A stretch of DNA of 64,000 bases, taken from the IMG/VR virus record IMGVR_UViG_3300027644_000003, positions 35,470 to 99,469 of that record; one strand, written 5' to 3'. The translations under genes and the position numbers were made by a program. The notes under the pieces were generated by a model, which saw nothing but the letters and a program-made list of their open reading frames with translations, had not been told where the DNA came from and did no database searches. The DNA comes from a virus. Of this stretch, positions 4,787 to 61,971 are shown piece by piece. How positions within the stretch are numbered: the stretch's first letter is position 1; every line of letters begins with the position of its first letter.

Positions 4787-5616
4787 TTCTTTAAAAATTT
4801 CTTATTAGGGGTTACAACGCCTTTAGTCTTCTTTTTAGCAGGTTGAATTTTATGCTTAGTTGCAATAGTCTTATTGTTAGTTGAGTGTAAGCCGCCCACT
4901 ACCCTATCTACAGTAGCTCCAGCCATATCTGGGGCTTCATCAGATATTTCAGGAGTAAACTCTACAATCGTTCCCATAGAGGCAATAGTACGAACATTAG
5001 CTGCGTTTTCTTTAAAAAAGTAAGGTGCTCTAGCAGCACTAGCTGAGCTTAGTTTGTCTTTTGACATAAAATAGACAGTAGTACCAGTAATTTTTAATCC
5101 AAAGCCAGTTTGTTTAGCTAATCTTCTTAATAATTGCCAATCACTTTGCCCAGCTTGAGAAATACTTGCAAATACTCTTGGATGACGTTGAGTAACTGCT
5201 TTTAGTCCGTATTGCTTACAGACTTTTTCAACAATTTGATCTGCAGTTACTTTTTTGTAGATCTTTTGACGAGTTGTTTTTAAAAGATAAGTTGCAGAAA
5301 TACATACGATTGTCGTGGTATTTTCAGCTACAGTAGAGGGAATTATTTTGTGTACGTAACCTACCCAAGTTTTTGTAGACCCTGCCCCAGAGTAATCAAA
5401 CTTGACTGGATCTCCTGAACCAACAAAATTTAAAGTTTCTTCTATTTTTCCGGCGTATTTTATAGTAAGAACGTCATGAGAGTTAAATTGTTGGTCTAAT
5501 CTAGCTGTTAAAAAAACTAAACCAAAAGAAGGGCTTAAAGGAAAAGTCACGTTTCTAGTAGGAAAACGCTCTAAAGGCGTTTTAACTAAGTTTTTTTTAG
5601 ACAGAGCTGTAGCCAC
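4783..5616 (-). CDS. Baseplate hub (late control D / gp27-like), N-terminal part
   Basis: TADQIVEKVCKQYGL...QAGQSDWQLLRRLA motif. Confidence 0.82.
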   Translation of the reverse strand: MATALSKKNLVKTPLERFPTRNVTFPLSPSFGLVFLTARLDQQFNSHDVLTIKYAGKIEETLNFVGSGDPVKFDYSGAGSTKTWVGYVHKIIPSTVAENTTTIVCISATYLLKTTRQKIYKKVTADQIVEKVCKQYGLKAVTQRHPRVFASISQAGQSDWQLLRRLAKQTGFGLKITGTTVYFMSKDKLSSASAARAPYFFKENAANVRTIASMGTIVEFTPEISDEAPDMAGATVDRVVGGLHSTNNKTIATKHKIQPAKKKTKGVVTPNKKFLKK

Positions 5617-5617
5617 G

Positions 5618-5899
5618 TTATCCCCTAGGAACTCTAATAATAGTTCCAGGCTCTATTTCTAAAGCATCTGGAAGACCTGGATTTATGTCTAGTATCTGCC
5701 ACCACAGAGTAGAGTCTCTTAAGTAAACTGCAGCTAAATAATCTAACCTATCTCCATCTACCCAAGTGTAATCAATATATGTAATTACTCTAGATTCTGG
5801 AAATGCTCTATATACCGTCCAAGCGTAAGCCCCGGTGGTTTTGTTCTTTATTTGCTGGGCATCCCCATCGTCGTAACGAGAGTCTCTATATACGGCCAT
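5618..5899 (-). CDS. LysM / tail X-like baseplate protein
   Basis: GDRLDYLA......LWWQILDINP....IEPGTIIRVP. Confidence 0.88.
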   Translation of the reverse strand: MAVYRDSRYDDGDAQQIKNKTTGAYAWTVYRAFPESRVITYIDYTWVDGDRLDYLAAVYLRDSTLWWQILDINPGLPDALEIEPGTIIRVPRG

Positions 5900-18250: not shown

Positions 18251-20605
18251 TTAGTCAACCGTATTGGAGTCGTGAGTCAACATCCTTTCGGTAAAGAATA
18301 TATCATAAGGTTCACAGTCGATAGAAACCACTTCGTGATTCACATCTACTTTTTTAAGGATGCTAATTGAGATCCAGTTGCGCTCAGCATATGACCATAT
18401 GAGGTCTGTATCTTCAAGATCAAGTGCTTTAACAAACGAGGTTACGTCTCCACGCTTGACCATAATGTAGTGAGTGTCTGAGAATATGTCTGAATCTACA
18501 ATGACTGCCCACTTAGATATACGAGTACGGATGTTTACAATCTCAGTTTCTACAAGGTTAACTTGTGGGTTTTGAGCAATCCATTCAATAAGGTCTATAT
18601 CTGTTACAAGTAAGTTGTCGTACGGGAAGGTAGCGATGTCTGCAGAAAGCAGCTTATCTCCAACTTTAAGATCATGAGCAGCAACTAGCCCATCTTTTGT
18701 ACGAACTAAAGTATTAATGTTAATACTTTTTAGTCCACTTTCGCCAAAGCCAGGGCCAAAGAAATCAAGATCAAGAGGTGGAAGTACCGTCTCTGTAGTA
18801 CCTCCAGTTGAAGTGTCTGTTTCTACAAAAGTAGTACTTCCATCAGGGTTGTTAGTAAAGGTAATTTGTGTTCCAGTCTCTGGATTTACAGGCAACGTTG
18901 TGGTTTCAGGTTGCGTTGGAAGTGTGGTGCCGTTAGAAGCTGCTGGACCTGTAGGGCTTGTAACAGTCGGCTCAACACAAGGACCATAAATATCTGCGCA
19001 ACCGCCTCTAGTAATGCAGTATGTTTGCGTACCGTTGTTTCCGCAATTTTGTGTTCCAGAACCATAGATGCACTCGGTACAGTTAATTACAGGTTCAACT
19101 ACCGTTGGCACACCGCAAAAATTTCTACCCGCACTACGTGGGGCACAGTTAGAGTAGGAACAAGGGTCATATTGGTTAACCATTAGAGTTCCATAACCAT
19201 CTGCACCAACGTTTATACAATAGCTTGCATCATCATCTATACAACAAGGTGTCCCAATAGCTGGAGCTACACAAGCCGTGTATCTGTCTGGACAGTTTGC
19301 TGGGGTCCTAAGAATTGTTCTAGTACCAGCTCTACCATCTGAAGTTGTGCATGGATCATCAGGTATTTCTCTAACAACTGGACAACTTGGTGTTCCCGGG
19401 TCAACCCAAATCTCTGGACACACAGCATATTGACCATTAGTTGTTATGCTGTTAGTACAATTTGTATTTGTAGGTGGGTCTACTAAATTAGTTGTTGAGT
19501 ATTTATTACAACTAGTTACATTTCCGTTAGTCCTACATACTTCTGTTACATAGTAAGTAGTGGTTACTGGCCCACCGCCTGTTGGTCCGGTTACTCCTGT
19601 TGGTCCAGTTGGTCCAGTTGGAGCTTGAACAGTACACTGTACAAAGTTGTATATATTGTTGCAGCCTTCAGGAGTTACACATTTGTATCTAATTGCTTTA
19701 CCTGAAGGACAGCCCGCTTCAGCGTATTCTTCTTCTCCACTACCAACTCCACAGTATGCGCCACCACATTTAGGAATTTCTCCAACACAGTCACCAATAA
19801 CGGTGTCTTGAACTGGAGTACACCAACTTTGGAAAGTTCTAGAAGTTACTAATCTTTGTCCAGTACTTAAGTATCCACAACCCTCATAAGTAGCAGAGGT
19901 TGATTTTGGAATACTGCAATTTTCTGTAGTAGAGCAAGAAGGAAACGAAATTATTCCTGCAGCTTCACAAACCCACTCACCAACTCCAGCAACAACGGTG
20001 CCAGTAAAATCGGTATCTTTGAGTTCATTTATACACGCTCCAGTAGAGAATGGGCGAAGAGTACAGTAGTACTTGACGTTAGGCTGTAAAGGGTTGCAGC
20101 ATGAGTACGAAACTTTAACGGAACTATCACTATAGCGCTTTGTTACACGTTTTGCGTAACCACTAGTACATCCAGAAATTCCACCCCAAAGTTCGCAGTC
20201 TCCTATTTGTTCACTAACTACTTGAATAATTGCATCTTCTTTAGTACACACTCCTGCTGGAGCTGTATAGGTAATGCATCCCGGATCTGTTTGACAGGTG
20301 TAGGGCGCAGTTCTAGTTCCTAAAGTAACGCCATCTGCTAAATAGCAAGGCTCTGTTGTAGGAAGAATAATGCCGTTAGTGCCGTTTAAACAATAGTTAG
20401 GCCGGTAACAAATAGTCTCTGGAATAGCTGCGGGCTGTTGTCCTGGAGCAGTACAGGTAGATCTCCATGTTCCGCTTATTCGAACATAAGATTGGTTTAC
20501 TGTACGCCAAGTTCCGTTTACTTTTACATATCCGCAAACACCATTAGAAGGAGAGTCTGTGGTGACTACCTTCCAAGCACCGGCAACTTTAGCGTATGTT
20601 GCCAT
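18251..20605 (-). CDS. Cys-rich fibre protein with C-terminal Hint domain
   Basis: YVKVNGTWR repeats, Cys-rich body, Pro/Thr linker, Hint-like blocks A/B/F/G. Confidence 0.75.
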   Translation of the reverse strand: MATYAKVAGAWKVVTTDSPSNGVCGYVKVNGTWRTVNQSYVRISGTWRSTCTAPGQQPAAIPETICYRPNYCLNGTNGIILPTTEPCYLADGVTLGTRTAPYTCQTDPGCITYTAPAGVCTKEDAIIQVVSEQIGDCELWGGISGCTSGYAKRVTKRYSDSSVKVSYSCCNPLQPNVKYYCTLRPFSTGACINELKDTDFTGTVVAGVGEWVCEAAGIISFPSCSTTENCSIPKSTSATYEGCGYLSTGQRLVTSRTFQSWCTPVQDTVIGDCVGEIPKCGGAYCGVGSGEEEYAEAGCPSGKAIRYKCVTPEGCNNIYNFVQCTVQAPTGPTGPTGVTGPTGGGPVTTTYYVTEVCRTNGNVTSCNKYSTTNLVDPPTNTNCTNSITTNGQYAVCPEIWVDPGTPSCPVVREIPDDPCTTSDGRAGTRTILRTPANCPDRYTACVAPAIGTPCCIDDDASYCINVGADGYGTLMVNQYDPCSYSNCAPRSAGRNFCGVPTVVEPVINCTECIYGSGTQNCGNNGTQTYCITRGGCADIYGPCVEPTVTSPTGPAASNGTTLPTQPETTTLPVNPETGTQITFTNNPDGSTTFVETDTSTGGTTETVLPPLDLDFFGPGFGESGLKSININTLVRTKDGLVAAHDLKVGDKLLSADIATFPYDNLLVTDIDLIEWIAQNPQVNLVETEIVNIRTRISKWAVIVDSDIFSDTHYIMVKRGDVTSFVKALDLEDTDLIWSYAERNWISISILKKVDVNHEVVSIDCEPYDIFFTERMLTHDSNTVD

Positions 20606-52588: not shown

Positions 52589-52700
52589 TATATTCCTCTT
52601 CCAAATGTTTTTCCTCGCACATGCGAGCTAAATCAGGAACTACATAGACTTTTCTACATAATTGACACGTCCAGCGTTCTAAACGCTCCCGATCATCCAT
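52578..52700 (-). CDS. Small Zn-finger protein (40 aa)
   Basis: Manual ORF containing WTCQLCRKVYVVPDLARMCEEKH. Confidence 0.6.
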   Translation of the reverse strand: MDDRERLERWTCQLCRKVYVVPDLARMCEEKHLEEEYNGR

Positions 52701-52813
52701 ATGTAGGCATCTTACTACTTGGCTACTGCCTTAGAAGCCTGTAGCTCCCCGAAATTTTTAGGCTACTGCCTCCCCGGTATAAGACTCAACAGTTTATTTC
52801 TCCTGGCCGAATA

Positions 52814-52888
52814 CGGACAAAACGGACATTTAAGGGTAGGGGGGGCAAAACGGACAAATCGGACAAATAAGAACAAAACGGACAAATA
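52814..52888. repeat. CGGACA(AAW) direct-repeat array at the strand switch
   Basis: CGGACA at 52814, 52823, 52851, 52860 and 52879, plus a degenerate copy at 52870. Confidence 0.85.
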
Positions 52889-52945
52889 AAATTATGGTGT
52901 AAGGCTTCAGAAGCAAAGGTTAGCAAGTAGGTAATCCTGTGTGCG

Positions 52946-52976
52946 GTGCCTAGTAGGTTCAACTCCTGCTAGGCAC
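52946..52976 (+). ncRNA. tRNA minihelix-like T-loop hairpin
   Basis: GTGCCTAGTAGG-TTCAACT-CCTGCTAGGCAC: 12-bp stem with 7-nt TPsiC-type loop. Confidence 0.7.
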
Positions 52977-53022
52977 ACGCTGTATTCGGTAGCCCTGTCT
53001 ATCAACAGCAGAAGGCATAACA

Positions 53023-53557: not shown

Positions 53558-53980
53558 GAGAGGGGGGACTAGCTCCTCCCTCTCCCTATCTATGTCCACA
53601 GTATCCCTGTGGGCGTAGATGGGGTATGCCGACCAATCGGCTCACTCTGGTATGTAATGTGCCAGCCCCCGCACTAATGGATTACCTACAAGTGTCTTCT
53701 GTCTATCGAGAAGCCCTAGCCGTCCCCTTCACAATGTCGGCTAGGGCTTTCTCATCTCACAATGTGATACAACTCTCATCATAGATAATTGGCTACTGCT
53801 AATTGGCTAACTATGAGCATTGGGAGACACACCAGGTCTACGACTATGGTCTAGGTCTGTTATCAGGTAGGTTGTGGAAGATACATAGGACAACAGACTG
53901 AGACTCGTAAGGTGTTAATTTGTCTGTGTAGTGCGTAGGTCGCCCTTCCCTATGTATCTCTCACTCTCTATCTGGAGAGT
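53558..53980 (+). ncRNA. Multi-hairpin, pseudoknotted non-coding region
   Basis: At least eight stems found by eye; no ORF of 60 aa or more. Confidence 0.6.
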
Positions 53981-54000
53981 ATCTAACTAGGAGTAATAAA

Positions 54001-54415: not shown

Positions 54416-54565
54416 ATGTTCACACTATCTGTAAAGATAGGCATTACCCGCAAGCCCCGCAAGCAGAAAGAGCTGACCAGTGTTGCTTGTTATCACTGTG
54501 GCAAGACCTTCACAATGCACATAAAGAACATCAGAACAAGCAATTACTGCACTAGTTGTAAGTAA
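54416..54565 (+). CDS. Small Zn-ribbon protein (49 aa)
   Basis: Manual ORF with CYHC and CTSC; GAAAGGA RBS. Confidence 0.75.
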   Translation: MFTLSVKIGITRKPRKQKELTSVACYHCGKTFTMHIKNIRTSNYCTSCK

Positions 54566-54589
54566 TACACCAATCCTTCCCCGCGAAGT

Positions 54590-54866
54590 TTGAGATGGAT
54601 AGAGGGCACACTGAATAGGCTGTTGATTGCATCGAGAACGAGGAATCTATGTGAGTGTAACTATTATCATAGAGGGAGCGTGAAGAAGCGAAGCAGTACG
54701 GACTTAGGTGCTTGAGGTGCCCAGAGGGAGATAGTTACCTACCTAAGTAATTACAGGACATGAACAAAAACAATCATGGTAATTGAATCTGTTATGCAAG
54801 AGGGGCTGTGGTTGTGAGTCTCACGCAATTCCTTCAGTAATTCAGTGTGTCCCCTATTTATCTCAA
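54590..54866 (+). ncRNA. 277-nt structured RNA closed by a 27-bp helix
   Basis: Closing helix has 23 Watson-Crick pairs, 3 G-U and 1 mismatch; internal kissing loop. Confidence 0.75.
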
Positions 54867-54894
54867 TCGAGGTAAATAAACAGAAGGGAAGACT

Positions 54895-54981
54895 ATGTAT
54901 ATCGAGTTCGAACCACAGACAATCGTAATCATCTGTATCTCACTAGTATTCATCGTTGCCATTAAAGCATGGCGTAAATAA
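54895..54981 (+). CDS. 28 aa single-TM peptide
   Basis: MYIEFEPQTIVIICISLVFIVAIKAWRK; AGAAGGG RBS. Confidence 0.7.
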   Translation: MYIEFEPQTIVIICISLVFIVAIKAWRK

Positions 54982-55008
54982 TTCCTCGAGAAGGGGATAC
55001 ACAGTGGC

Positions 55009-55215
55009 GACCAAGGTAATCCCACTACGGATAACAGCCATGCCCTCTGCGCTCCCGGCGCAACGGTATGGTGTAGACGCTTTCTACTTAAATGTTACTA
55101 CGCCTATGGGTGTGGAAAGTGCTGTGGTTGGTCAGACATGACCTGAGGTAAAACATGTCCCGAGCAACGGGGTATATCTGCGCCTCACCTGAGTATGTGA
55201 AAGCTAAACTGCTCA
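55009..55215 (+). ncRNA. Structured RNA with two tandem H-type pseudoknots
   Basis: GACCAA/TTGGTC multibranch; pseudoknots at 55130-55159 and 55185-55215. Confidence 0.55.
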
Positions 55216-55234
55216 CCTAACAGAAGGGATAACA

Positions 55235-56191: not shown

Positions 56192-56193
56192 TC

Positions 56194-56416
56194 TTGCACG
56201 GGAGCGGGATGAACTGCGTTCAGAAAACTCCCCTCGTGAGTCCGCACCATCATGCGGAATACAAATGAGATGGAGCTTGTATAGATGTCAAAGTCTATGC
56301 AAGCACGTTGGGCAGAAGCATAATGATTAGCCAATAGAAACCGATCGAAGTCTCAGAGAAGATGGTATTTGGTCTAGCGGGTATCTCATGGAGAAACTAC
56401 TCCCGCCTATGTGCAA
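56194..56416 (+). ncRNA. 223-nt closed structured RNA
   Basis: TTGCAC/GTGCAA and GCGGGA/TCCCGC closing helices; internal 12-bp hairpin; loop-distal pairing. Confidence 0.65.
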
Positions 56417-56571
56417 CTTTTCAAAACACCAGAGACTAAATGCGTTTGCTGTTGACAGCACACCTCGGGGTAACTCCCACGTGTGCCGAGGCTAGAGTCA
56501 GGATAACCCCGTCAAAAGTGGTGCTTCTGTCCAACACAAACAACCCCCCAACACACAGAAGGGACAACAAC

Positions 56572-58011: not shown

Positions 58012-58027
58012 CCGTTCCAACACAAAC

Positions 58028-58260
58028 ATTCACACGACAAGAAGCACTCGGCAAAATACTTAACTCGACCCAAGCCGGAACGCAATAACAATGGGCCGTG
58101 GGAAGATGGTTGAAGGTGACTAACTGGTCCAACTAACCGCTTCCGCGAGCGAATCAATTCATTTGAGCAGGCCCGTAGTAGCTAAGATTTCAGTCCCTTT
58201 TGTCCTTCGTGCGTAACTCTTGTGAATACCTCGGGGCAGGTCTTATTGACCTGCCTCGGG
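58028..58260 (+). ncRNA. Structured intergenic RNA plus 13-bp hairpin
   Basis: ATTCAC/GTGAAT closure, ATGGGCC/GGCCCGT inner stem, hairpin 58230-58260. Confidence 0.5.
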
Positions 58261-58288
58261 GAACTTAACCTACTAGAAGGGAACCATA

Positions 58289-58534
58289 ATGTCTATGTTT
58301 TTTCCAGACCACGACCACAATGACGACACGCCAGATTTTGAAAACCTGTCTCCTGTTGAAAAGCAAGAGTTCTATGACTATATTACGAAGCAAATGAATT
58401 TGATTATACAAAAAGCAGAAACACAAGGAGTGCTGTTTGATTTAATTACAAAATGGCCCCACGATAAGCAGGTAGCGTATGAGATGGCTACCGTAATTGA
58501 GAACCGCGTCCTAGAAGACGACGACGAACGCTAA
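58289..58534 (+). CDS. Acidic hypothetical protein
   Basis: 81 aa ORF; AGAAGGG RBS. Confidence 0.75.
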   Translation: MSMFFPDHDHNDDTPDFENLSPVEKQEFYDYITKQMNLIIQKAETQGVLFDLITKWPHDKQVAYEMATVIENRVLEDDDER

Positions 58535-58609
58535 GTTTCCTTAACAAATTGTTAGGGAATGTCATAGCAATATGACAAACGATTCCATTACCAAAGAAGG
58601 GGTAAAGAT

Positions 58610-60052
58610 ATGGATATCGCTGTATTCACAGAGTCGTACGAACCAATCATGGGGGCTAAGCGCCGTCAGGTTCTTATCACTCCACATGATGGAAATGTAC
58701 GAATCTACTCACGTGATACTGACGGGACTAAGGGTCCTCACAACAAGTGGGAGGAAACTGACCTCGACACTATCACTGGACAGATAGGTACTGATGAAAA
58801 GCTAACACGTGAACCTGTTGCTGTATATGTTACATCAGCAGACGAACGTGCTATGACGGACAAAGGTTATTCCCCGGTCCTCGGCACCAAGGCGTGTCAA
58901 GCACATACTAAAGCAGGACTCAACACGGATACTACGCCATTTGTAGAACGCTTATGCGAAATCTACGAAGCGGTAAGTAACCATGATGATTCTCTTGAAA
59001 ACCATGTGATTGACAATCGTCGTATGCCAGGCTTACCTGTTCCGCTAGCATCAGCACCAACACAAACAACGCCAGCACCTACCGCAACACCATTTGTAGA
59101 GCCTGTTGTTCAAGCAACAAGTACATCAAACGGCGCAGTAATAACCGCAGCGCTTGCTTCAGTGCCACGCATTGAACTAGCAAAACGTTATGTGCATCGT
59201 GATATCTGGTCCCGCCAGGACTTTGAAATCTTTGATTACTCTCGTGCTAAAAGCATCAACGTTCTTATCTACGGCCCTACCGGCCCAGGTAAAACTACAT
59301 CTGTTGAAGCATGGGCTGCTGAACGCAATTTACCTATGGCAACAGTATCTGGTAACGCTTCAATGGAGCCAAGCCAAATGACTGGTAAATATGTATCTGA
59401 TGGCAATGGTTCATTTGCATGGATCGATGGCCCAGTTACAGATGTTGTTCGTAATGGTGGTGTCTTATTACTCGACGAGGTTAACTTCATCAGTCCTAAG
59501 ATCTACACTGTTCTATATTCATTGCTAGATGGTCGTCGTTCTATCACACTGTTGGATCACCATGGTGAAACTATTGAGGCTCATCCAGACCTCACTATCT
59601 TCGCTACTATGAATCCAGATTACATTGGTACAACGCCGCTCAACTTTGCATTCCGCAATCGTTTTGATATCCAGATTCCATGGGATTACGACGATAAGGT
59701 CGAGTCTAAACTAGTCTCCTCCAAGGCTTTGCTTGTAGTTGCTAAACAACTACGCGTTGAAGCTAACAAAGGTCAATACGAGACACCAATCTCAACCAAC
59801 ATGCTGCAAGAGTTCGTTAACTTTGTTGACCCTCTTGGCTACGAGTTCGCAGTGGAAAACTTCATTGCTCACTTTAGTTCTGACGAAGCAGCAAGCGTTC
59901 GATTGGTATTTCAGACACACGAACACAATATCAAGACAGACTTTGGTATTGAAATCCCAATAACTCTTGAGAAAGAGTCTGAAGGAAAATCTCCTGAAGA
60001 ACTTCTTAAAGAGTGGGCAGGACAATACGGAGCAGTTAACGGATTGGTATAA
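58610..60052 (+). CDS. MoxR/CobS-like AAA+ ATPase
   Basis: GPTGPGKT, LLDEVN, ATMNP and NRF motifs. Confidence 0.93.
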   Translation: MDIAVFTESYEPIMGAKRRQVLITPHDGNVRIYSRDTDGTKGPHNKWEETDLDTITGQIGTDEKLTREPVAVYVTSADERAMTDKGYSPVLGTKACQAHTKAGLNTDTTPFVERLCEIYEAVSNHDDSLENHVIDNRRMPGLPVPLASAPTQTTPAPTATPFVEPVVQATSTSNGAVITAALASVPRIELAKRYVHRDIWSRQDFEIFDYSRAKSINVLIYGPTGPGKTTSVEAWAAERNLPMATVSGNASMEPSQMTGKYVSDGNGSFAWIDGPVTDVVRNGGVLLLDEVNFISPKIYTVLYSLLDGRRSITLLDHHGETIEAHPDLTIFATMNPDYIGTTPLNFAFRNRFDIQIPWDYDDKVESKLVSSKALLVVAKQLRVEANKGQYETPISTNMLQEFVNFVDPLGYEFAVENFIAHFSSDEAASVRLVFQTHEHNIKTDFGIEIPITLEKESEGKSPEELLKEWAGQYGAVNGLV

Positions 60053-60054
60053 CT

Positions 60055-61971
60055 ATGTACATTGAAGAACTAGAACAGCACTGGGGTGATGCCCGGACTG
60101 AAGATACACAGCAACGTTCTGTTCGACTCAATGCACTATGTCGTGTATACGAACAGGCTGACCGTGTACTCACGGGTGACCCAGTCACAGTCAATGTAGT
60201 GCCTAACGGCCCCGCACCAGCGTGGTCTGATGGTGCATCTATTTACATCAACCTTGATCAAATTGAGGAGATGGACTTAGAAACATTAACACAGGTTAAC
60301 GGTCTCAATTACCATGAGCTAGCCCATCACCTGTATACGCCTCGCAAAGGCACAGAACTAATCAAGTGGGTCATTGATAAAAAATACTTCCAAGCCTTTA
60401 ACATCTTGGAAGATCAACGTATCGAGACTCTCTTAGTTGGTAGATATCCATCTATTGCGCCATACCTAACAGCAACAGTTGCTCGTTGGTTAGGTGCATC
60501 AGAAGATGTCAATGGTAACTATGTCTGCATACGTGGCCGTCGTTACTTACCTGTTGAAATTAGACAAGCATTCCGTGACGAGTTTGCCTTCCCTGAACTA
60601 ATACCAACAATAATTAGAATCGTAGATGAGTATCGATTGCTAGCGTTTCCACAAGGATACGCACGAGCACAAGAACTAATCGAAGAGTTCTATGATGAAG
60701 TATGCCTACCAATGGGCTTACTACCTGAGATGGATGGTGGCCCCAACAAGTGTGGTGGTCGTGATCCAGTATCAAAAGGCAGACCTGAACCTGGTAAGGC
60801 TCAGGAGAAAGACGCTCAACGAGCAGCAGGTATGGGTACTAAAGAATCTACTTATGTACCTAAACCTAAAACTAATGAGAGCCCATCTTCAGATAACAAT
60901 GGACTATCTGATATGCCTACCAACACAAACCCAAACGATGACGGCAATGGATCTAATCCATCTACCACATCTGCGCCACGCTCTGTCCAAGAAGCATTGG
61001 ACATACGAGAGCAAAATATAAATACATCCTCAATAACACCCGGAACAGGACATGCTCCTAGTCTTGGTGGTTTACCTGACAAAATCAATGACATGCTAAA
61101 TACAGCAATTGATGAAGTGCTTGAACGTAAAGATGTACAAGCAGACGTCAAAACAAAACAGCGTGTAATTGTAGGTGGAGATGGTAAACACGAGGATATA
61201 ACTAAGAAAGGTAAATTCAATGATACAAGCGTTCCCCAAGACGCAATAATCTCTTATCGCAAGTTTGCTAAAGAGTTACAGCGTTTACGCGATGATTCAG
61301 AACCTACGTGGCAAAGAGAAACCCCTACAGGTCGACTCAATGTACAACGTGTAATCAGAGGTTGCGAAATTGATCAATCCTTTGATAGGTGGGACGAAGG
61401 TGATGATGGCTGTGATATCGAAGCAGTTATCCTTGTCGACCGTTCAGGTTCTATGTCTAGTCAACAGAATGATAAAAAAGCATCTATCGCTTGCTGGACT
61501 ATCAAACGTGCGCTAGAACATATACAAGCCCCAGTCACCGTCTATGCCTTTGATGATAAAGCAGAAGTTGCTTATACTCGTAATGAGCGTGCATCTAAAA
61601 CTCAATACAAGTTCATCTATGGTAATGGTGGTACAGAACCGTACCCAACCTTGCTTGCTGCCGAACAGTTACTTATGGCTTCGCGTAAGAAGAATAAGAT
61701 GCTGTTCATTGTTACCGATGGTGTGTTCAACACAAACAAAAACGACGAACTAATTGAACGCATTACCCGTCGCGGTATCTTGACATCTATGATTCTTATC
61801 ATGGAGGATAAAGAATGGAAATACTATGTAGAAGACCATAACCAACTCACTCAAGAGCAGTTACGGCACAAAGCAGAAGTATTTGCCCGTATCAATACTG
61901 CCAAAGACTTACTCCCATTTGCTAAACAAGTGGTAGTCAGTGCCATCAAAAAACGCTCGAGAATGAGATAG
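60055..61971 (+). CDS. CobT-like VWA protein with N-terminal metallopeptidase motif
   Basis: HELAH, FNILEDQRIE, MIDAS DRSGS, GGT and VTDG motifs. Confidence 0.92.
   Translation: MYIEELEQHWGDARTEDTQQRSVRLNALCRVYEQADRVLTGDPVTVNVVPNGPAPAWSDGASIYINLDQIEEMDLETLTQVNGLNYHELAHHLYTPRKGTELIKWVIDKKYFQAFNILEDQRIETLLVGRYPSIAPYLTATVARWLGASEDVNGNYVCIRGRRYLPVEIRQAFRDEFAFPELIPTIIRIVDEYRLLAFPQGYARAQELIEEFYDEVCLPMGLLPEMDGGPNKCGGRDPVSKGRPEPGKAQEKDAQRAAGMGTKESTYVPKPKTNESPSSDNNGLSDMPTNTNPNDDGNGSNPSTTSAPRSVQEALDIREQNINTSSITPGTGHAPSLGGLPDKINDMLNTAIDEVLERKDVQADVKTKQRVIVGGDGKHEDITKKGKFNDTSVPQDAIISYRKFAKELQRLRDDSEPTWQRETPTGRLNVQRVIRGCEIDQSFDRWDEGDDGCDIEAVILVDRSGSMSSQQNDKKASIACWTIKRALEHIQAPVTVYAFDDKAEVAYTRNERASKTQYKFIYGNGGTEPYPTLLAAEQLLMASRKKNKMLFIVTDGVFNTNKNDELIERITRRGILTSMILIMEDKEWKYYVEDHNQLTQEQLRHKAEVFARINTAKDLLPFAKQVVVSAIKKRSRMR

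Follow-up and report, generated by a model that had tools for sequence, protein, structure and literature searches.

A family of covarying structured RNAs among the small early genes of uncultured freshwater actinobacterial phages

Elaborate, covariation-supported RNAs carried by phages have been described as GOLLD and ROOL and, on a larger scale, among the 10,006 unnamed candidate viral structured RNAs that Fremin et al. (2023, PMC10690425) screened from IMG/VR, the same resource that supplied the contig studied here. Orphan structured phage RNAs are already known as a kind, and that catalogue (PMC10690425) may contain the family reported below; the RNA family itself is new and has no relative in Rfam. 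GOLLD and ROOL exceed the present element two- to threefold in size, and their Rfam models do not match it. The pRNA of phi29 is likewise a phage-encoded early RNA with two complementary loops that covary between phages, a feature also found in the element. However, pRNA is 120-174 nt long and belongs to small protein-primed podoviruses, in which the loops of different pRNA molecules pair with each other around the portal, whereas the element comes from a 100-kb tailed actinophage with a Borockvirus-type capsid and matches pRNA neither in sequence nor by model. A long duplex flanking a unit within a polycistronic transcript, like the closing helix (P1) of the element, is known from the early RNase III sites of T7 (R0.3, R1.1) and from rRNA-flanking stems. 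Cleavage at T7-type sites parts the cistrons and leaves terminal hairpins, and by analogy cleavage of P1 would do the same; the T7 sites are simple irregular hairpins of ~60 nt, whereas P1 closes a conserved, pseudoknotted core of 220 nt. In Y RNA (bound by Ro60), 6S RNA and adenovirus VA RNA, too, a long terminal stem holds the ends and the central domain is structured; in VA RNA, an abundant viral decoy, that domain is pseudoknotted. None of them is homologous to the element, and any likeness would be functional only. Finally, the element resembles 3'UTR-derived sRNAs in its position behind a unit's last ORF and in the intrinsic terminator that most homologs share with that unit, but such sRNAs are short, Hfq-type RNAs with single-stranded seeds rather than a compact 280-nt fold. 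To our knowledge, few large, well-supported structured RNA classes come from phages, and almost none from freshwater actinobacterial phages. With ~280 nt, ten covarying helices including a loop-loop contact, presence in RNA libraries and a ready covariance model, the family is a candidate that lends itself to structure determination and to the search for a new RNA-based step, either in phage takeover or in mRNA processing.

The window, by which we mean the whole stretch of DNA analysed, covers the final 64 kb of an IMG/VR phage record of 99.5 kb (IMGVR_UViG_3300027644_000003), which CheckV rates complete. Tailed-phage structural genes are encoded in the record, and its major capsid protein shares 73% identity with those of the Streptomyces phages BRock, LuckySocke and Alone3 (Borockvirus type). 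Two WhiB-family genes scored above the Pfam cut-off (G000:C1:29150-29338 and 19452-19673, outside the window), and Corynebacterium was the sole control genome to give a match in this search. WhiB is a hallmark of actinobacteria. Based on these genes, the G+C content of the phage (43.5%) and the sequencing runs holding the stretch, all of which are labelled freshwater or lake, the host is probably a low-GC freshwater actinobacterium. Late genes occupy the - strand up to 52588, and small + strand ORFs follow from 53023 onward. The element sits among the latter, in a gap of 329 nt that a 49-aa zinc-ribbon ORF (54416-54565) borders upstream and a 28-aa membrane mini-ORF (54895-54981) downstream. 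The zinc-ribbon ORF contains a 9-nt perfect tandem duplication (CCCGCAAGC x2) at 54447-54464.

Homologs were collected by flanking-protein searches and DNA-pattern scans of viral and metagenome collections and confirmed by profile search. Twenty-four further distinct copies were found in related uncultured freshwater phage contigs, with lengths of 277-293 nt and a mean column identity of 75% in the alignment. Pattern matches at L025, L026, L028, L039, L040, L042 and L069-L071 had no profile support and were discarded as chance. The element occurs once in each of three complete genomes and is missing from two complete related phages, and is therefore dispensable; BRock and LuckySocke also lack it. 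When 50,697 phage records were searched with the region by blastn, none matched; scanning 185,579 species genomes for the pattern returned chance hits only and no bacterial genome copy; and literature searches found no description of the element. None of the 4227 models of Rfam 15 reached its gathering threshold anywhere in the window. Around the element, hits admitted at E values up to 10 were at chance level (TarA, 17.9 bits against a threshold of 80; PART1_3, 16 against 40), and searching eight divergent homologs yielded nothing on the element. The Rfam models of ribozyme and scaffold families, pRNA/GOLLD/ROOL, riboswitches and 6S RNA do not match. The family consists of 277-293-nt structured RNAs located among small early genes in a clade of uncultured freshwater actinobacterial phages. 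Its features in the window, from 5' to 3', are the following.

54563-54589, + strand: 5' leader of 27 nt, TAATACACCAA..CTTCCCCGCGAAGT, beginning with the stop codon of the upstream ORF
54590-54616/54840-54866, + strand: closing helix P1 (inverted repeat I1), 22-29 pairs in 25/25 homologs
54619-22/54835-38, + strand: helix P2a, supported by covariation
54625-30/54825-30, + strand: helix P2b, supported by covariation
54634-37/54819-22, + strand: helix 4, GAGA/TCTC, also found as GAGG/CCTC
54638-40/54679-81, + strand: helix 5, ACG/CGT, also found as ACA/TGT and ACT/AGT
54646-51/54668-73, + strand: hairpin P3 (helix 6), both-side changes in 3/6 pairs
54657-64/54731-38, + strand: loop-loop helix (helix 7)
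54680-54692, + strand: purine-rich junction strand GTGAAGAAGC.., columns at least 90% conserved in alignment A3
54693-97/54805-09, + strand: P6 (helix 8), 5/5 pairs changing on both sides, enclosing P4 and P5
54702-09/54741-48, + strand: stem P4, supported by covariation, holding P4a and kissing sequence 2
54720-22/54726-28, + strand: inner hairpin P4a, with variants CCC/GGG, CGG/CCG and CAG/CTG
54749-84, + strand: variable arm P5, AATTAC/GTAATT plus CATGA/TCATG in this phage
54805-54822, + strand: 3' strand of P6 (54805-09), linker and TCTC (54819-22)
54855-64/54869-78, + strand: alternative hairpin (inverted repeat I12), using the final 10 nt of the 3' arm of P1
54883-54891, + strand: purine-rich SD-like tail, the RBS of the next ORF here and kept in almost all homologs
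54895-54981, + strand: single-pass membrane mini-ORF of 28 aa, the immediate downstream neighbour, outside the RNA

The helix model was derived from covarying stacks and evaluated on alignment A3 (24 non-identical sequences), with pairing partners slid by 1-3 columns and 500 shuffles as controls. It comprises ten helices and 74 pairs, including the loop-loop helix. Standard pairs filled 92.6% of the cells in the model compared with 35-44% with slid partners, both-side changes were found in 43 of the 74 pairs compared with 12-22, and the covariation score was 0.309 compared with 0.06-0.09; not one of the 500 shuffles equalled the model on any of these measures. P1 and P2a together hold 14 pairs with changes on both sides (helices 1-2), and the letters of P1 differ in L014, L016 and L017 while its length stays at 22-29 pairs. 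Column pair 44/270 in the P2 region (helices 2-3) switches from G-C to A-U in eight sequences, and P6 changes, for example, from CAG/CTG to TGA/TCA. The 3' strands of P2b and P2a (54825-54838) fall within a 36-nt block that is invariant among close homologs. At the central junction, 54634-54640 is modelled as one continuous strand on which the GAGA and ACG helices would stack. We regard the element as almost certainly a genuine structured RNA family.

The pairings listed in the original prediction, which had been made from the letters of the window, are all real. Its closing repeat (54590-54616/54840-54866) consists of 23 Watson-Crick pairs, three G-U pairs on the + strand and one A-C mismatch over 27 positions. 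The TCTATG/CATAGA hairpin (54646-51/54668-73) displays GTAACTAT (54657-64) in its 16-nt loop, as claimed, and this kissing sequence 1 is the exact complement (8/8) of ATAGTTAC (54731-38), which is enclosed by the equally perfect stem ACTTAGGT/ACCTAAGT (8/8, 54702-09/54741-48). The further arm AATTAC/GTAATT plus CATGA/TCATG is present at 54749-84 in this phage; it is, however, the sole variable arm, and most homologs carry a longer, different one. Four covariation-supported helices had been missed (P2a/P2b, GAGA/TCTC, ACG/CGT and GCAGT/GCTGT), and the proposed extent of 277 nt (54590-54866) holds for the core pairings, while the conserved unit is wider, taking in the 5' leader (54563-89) and a 3' tail to ~54891.

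The loop-loop contact is documented by compensatory change, the absence of which the original prediction had named as a refutation, with seven of its eight pairs altered on both sides. The pair reads GTAACTAT/ATAGTTAC here, ACAACTAT/ATAGTTGT in L054 and GGAACTAT/ATAGTTTC in L045 and L062; L038 swaps a U-A pair for C-G, and L017 carries the unrelated yet complementary GGATTTAGA/TCTAAATTCC. In 19 sequences the cognate kissing duplex reached -8 to -11 kcal/mol, compared with about -3 to -4 kcal/mol for shuffled loops. The six members of the L014 subgroup show a bulged complementarity of 7-10 bp that overlaps P4 and is statistically ambiguous, and the loops of L016 gave no duplex better than shuffled ones. 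As a covariation signal, the loop-loop helix would fit intramolecular or intermolecular pairing alike. P5 in most homologs is a longer arm with GACGCGAC or GTCATGAC in its apical loop (A3 columns ~200-215). The change from GACGCGAC to GTCATGAC in L038, L054 and L067 keeps the central palindrome (CGCG to CATG), as would be expected of a self-pairing loop or of the site of a dimeric binder; the window itself has a short P5 arm without the palindrome.

Folding energy alone cannot decide the strand, as both strands fold well. The minimum free energy of the + strand is -92.3 kcal/mol (z = -4.5, 0/200 shuffles as good), and the - strand also scores well (z = -5.2) because of the long inverted repeat. 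In the alignment, 158 G-U cells stand against 39 A-C cells, and the covariance model R1, built from the homologs as the original prediction had suggested, scores 280 bits on the + strand and 31 bits on the - strand, indicating an RNA on the + strand, co-oriented with the flanking early genes. No ORF within the element is conserved across the homologs; the longest stop-free stretch varies in strand and frame, and indels break every reading frame. Together with the G-U bias and the R1 scores, this shifting stop-free stretch identifies a non-coding + strand RNA.

Logan contigs from four metatranscriptome runs match the region at 99-100% identity, and one of them, 204 nt long, lies entirely within the element. 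These contigs show presence in RNA libraries and are silent on level, strand and exact ends, with DNA carry-over possible. The contig ends at ~54602-09 and 54875-81 are imprecise, as they come from assembled contigs only. The downstream RNA contigs of three runs from three studies start at 54875, 54875 and 54881, without loose ends, and this shared start at ~54875-81 hints, weakly, at an RNA end. Contig depth in two runs was 39-65 over the element and 3-15 over the flanks, values that cannot rank abundance, and parts of the 4-kb stretch have no RNA-contig cover, which says nothing of expression level. Thus, the central claims of the original prediction, namely that the RNA is non-coding, is closed by a long helix and contains a loop-loop contact, are backed by covariation, by strand-specific G-U wobble and by RNA-library presence; the catalytic or scaffold role that it also proposed is a conjecture, with no match to a known ribozyme or scaffold family.

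The flanks of the helical core are conserved as well. The 5' leader is nearly invariant in 20 of 25 homologs despite different upstream genes. Unrelated upstream ORFs (zinc ribbons of 49 and 67 aa and a 56-aa protein) share their stop codon TAA at 54563-54565 in all main-group loci. The RNA module therefore has a sharp recombination boundary at this codon. A repeated phage promoter was considered for the leader and rejected, since its motif occurs once in the genome and the other two AAGTAATACAC copies lie within coding sequence; pairing of the leader with the P5 loop or the G-rich junction strand was likewise dropped, as the alignments contain no supporting covariation. The leader segment CTTCCC (54576-81) is predicted, by minimum free energy only, to pair with the RBS GGGAAG, and both are so highly conserved that covariation cannot test this pairing. 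The alternative hairpin shows compensatory changes in L002 (two pairs) and L054 and is isoenergetic with outer P1 (-9.3 and -9.9 kcal/mol); it is missing from L014, L016, L017 and L038 and competes with only the outer 10 of the 27 bp. A strong intrinsic terminator stands 30-60 nt past P1 in 14 of 23 homologs, whereas the window itself has none and runs directly into the mini-ORF; a scan for sigma-70 promoters and terminators found nothing adjoining the element in the window.

The genes beside the RNA change from locus to locus. The downstream genes of the homologs comprise at least six unrelated ones, and in L014 (3437-3535) and L016 (3435-3527) homologs of the mini-ORF are found upstream of the RNA, at a distance of 5-6 nt. 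The SD-like tail is kept in both although no ORF lies behind it. The mini-ORF peptide is conserved in its own right as a single-pass membrane peptide of 28-32 aa with a basic C-terminus. Neighbourhood analysis gave no partner protein, as no flanking ORF tracks the RNA, and the contrast in gene content between genomes with and without it was obscured by their general divergence and by spurious, overlapping ORFs. Comparison of the loci shows the RNA as an independent module that moves between different neighbouring genes.

Several known types of element were considered and set aside. A 6S/Ms1-type RNA does not fit, as the fold is multi-branched and pseudoknotted instead of a rod with a central bubble, and no Rfam 6S model matches. 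A retron msr-msd is rejected, since no RVT_1 match was found in the 99.5-kb genome while the controls were positive. At 58610-61971 the window encodes a MoxR/CobS-like AAA+ ATPase (AAA_5) and, behind it, a protein of 638 aa that carries a VWA domain at its C-terminus and has no match in residues 1-450. A Ro60-like role of this VWA protein was dismissed because it has no TROVE domain, and the phage genome gave no match to a TROVE/Ro60 gene. A cobalamin riboswitch, suggested by the CobS/CobT-like genes 4 kb downstream, has no Rfam match, and membership of a riboswitch class in general disagrees with the at least six unrelated downstream genes and with a terminator that occurs in 14/23 homologs and is absent here.

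We favour, with a rough probability of 45%, the reading that the element is a discrete, stable, end-clamped early phage ncRNA acting in trans. This reading is preferred because the conserved complexity and the invariant junction strands go far beyond the needs of a cleavage site, because the module is portable, and because it usually has its own terminator. The RNA would be transcribed together with the upstream early genes; the promoter scan found none of its own. RNase III substrates span about two helical turns, and P1, with 22-29 pairs in 25/25 homologs, exceeds the ~20 bp of duplex within a transcript that characterise such sites; judged from this model, P1 is likely an RNase III site. 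The RNase III gene is present in the actinobacterial control genome and absent from the phage, and the host enzyme would release or trim the RNA by acting on P1, unless the transcript simply ends at the terminator. The product would accumulate as a compact RNA, and we propose nuclease resistance because both of its ends are buried in the P1 clamp. It would then act in trans during host takeover, its invariant junction strands binding a host or phage factor, and in this phage cleavage would also free the RBS of the 28-aa ORF from pairing with the C-rich leader. A further and doubtful reading is a new class of phage RNA whose complementary loops, P3 with P4 and in most members also the palindromic P5 loop, drive intermolecular assembly into a dimer or ring, or whose compact core counters a host factor of RNA binding or defence, as a decoy, an inhibitor or a ribozyme, early in the infection of freshwater actinobacteria.

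The main rival, which we think less likely than the favoured reading, is a cassette that acts purely in cis on the processing, stability or translation of the early polycistronic mRNA: an RNase III cut would give the flanking mRNAs protective hairpins and uncover the downstream RBS, while the excised core would have no function of its own. Such a cassette would sit between same-strand early ORFs, as the element does, and an insulator-like cassette would show the same portability beside any gene. The alternative 3' hairpin with its compensatory changes, isoenergetic with outer P1, the predicted pairing of leader CTTCCC with the RBS GGGAAG, and the start of RNA contigs at ~54875-81 in three runs point in the same direction, as do the other gaps of the operon, which are also conserved and structured; the alternative hairpin, the SD-like tail and these structured gaps fit a cis role at least equally well. 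Yet a hairpin of ~60 nt suffices for cleavage, whereas here nine helices, a pseudoknot and invariant junction strands are kept over a nearly constant length of 277-293 nt. Moreover, with a terminator in 14/23 homologs there is often no downstream cistron on the transcript to unmask, and the SD-like tail persists in L014 and L016, where no ORF follows. A trans-acting ncRNA and a cis cassette are not mutually exclusive. The two mutually exclusive pairings of 54855-64, both with compensatory changes, would also suit a ligand- or protein-responsive regulator that toggles a terminator or downstream RBS between closed P1 and the alternative hairpin, and the terminator or RBS directly downstream and the complex, conserved, aptamer-like core are in line with this. 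We nevertheless consider such a regulator improbable, because the downstream genes are unrelated across homologs, a P1 of 22-29 bp is far too stable for switching, with only the outer 10 bp in competition, the alternative hairpin is absent from L014, L016, L017 and L038, and no riboswitch family matches.

Self-assembly through intermolecular loops, as in phi29 pRNA or ROOL/GOLLD cages, or a new ribozyme activity, has in our estimate a small chance of being correct. The covariation of the loop pair is compatible with intermolecular pairing, the P5 palindrome is kept on change (CGCG to CATG; TCATGA in three sequences) as in a homodimerising loop, and a precedent exists in the natural RNA-only assemblies via kissing loops that a preprint reports (bioRxiv 10.1101/2024.12.08.627333). 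On the other hand, the P5 loop of the window itself has no palindrome, and no known ribozyme core, pRNA, GOLLD or ROOL model matches. Finally, the view that the element acts as DNA, whether as MITE-like terminal inverted repeats, as an origin of replication or as a palindrome bound by a protein, or that it encodes a small protein, is largely refuted and very improbable. The 27-nt terminal inverted repeats do resemble those of a MITE, a 41-codon ORF starting with TTG spans 54590-54715, and the - strand folds well too, owing to the repeat. However, the element is present in a single copy in each of three complete genomes, its flanks (AAGT and TCGA) show no target-site duplication, and no transposase-sized ORF was found near it. 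The internal helices covary, a feature not required of DNA binding sites, G-U cells exceed A-C cells by 4:1 in a strand-specific manner, R1 scores 280 against 31 bits, and indels disrupt all reading frames.

Other parts of the early region are also conserved. All of its larger intergenic gaps, at 52589-53022, 53785-54000, 54982-55234, 56192-56439 and 58012-58609, are conserved in nucleotide sequence in 14-34 related loci, and each yields a consensus fold with 6-35 pairs changing on both sides, counts that are alifold-derived and lean towards structure. The most striking is the 598-nt gap before the MoxR-like ATPase gene. In L020 (~5585-5640), a terminator hairpin separates the SD-like tail from a start codon that directly abuts the U-tract. 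L045, L058, L060 and L062 show the same arrangement in the corresponding place. The 166-aa ORF at this site has no other RBS, and the arrangement may represent a split ribosome-binding site joined by the hairpin, or obligatory read-through.
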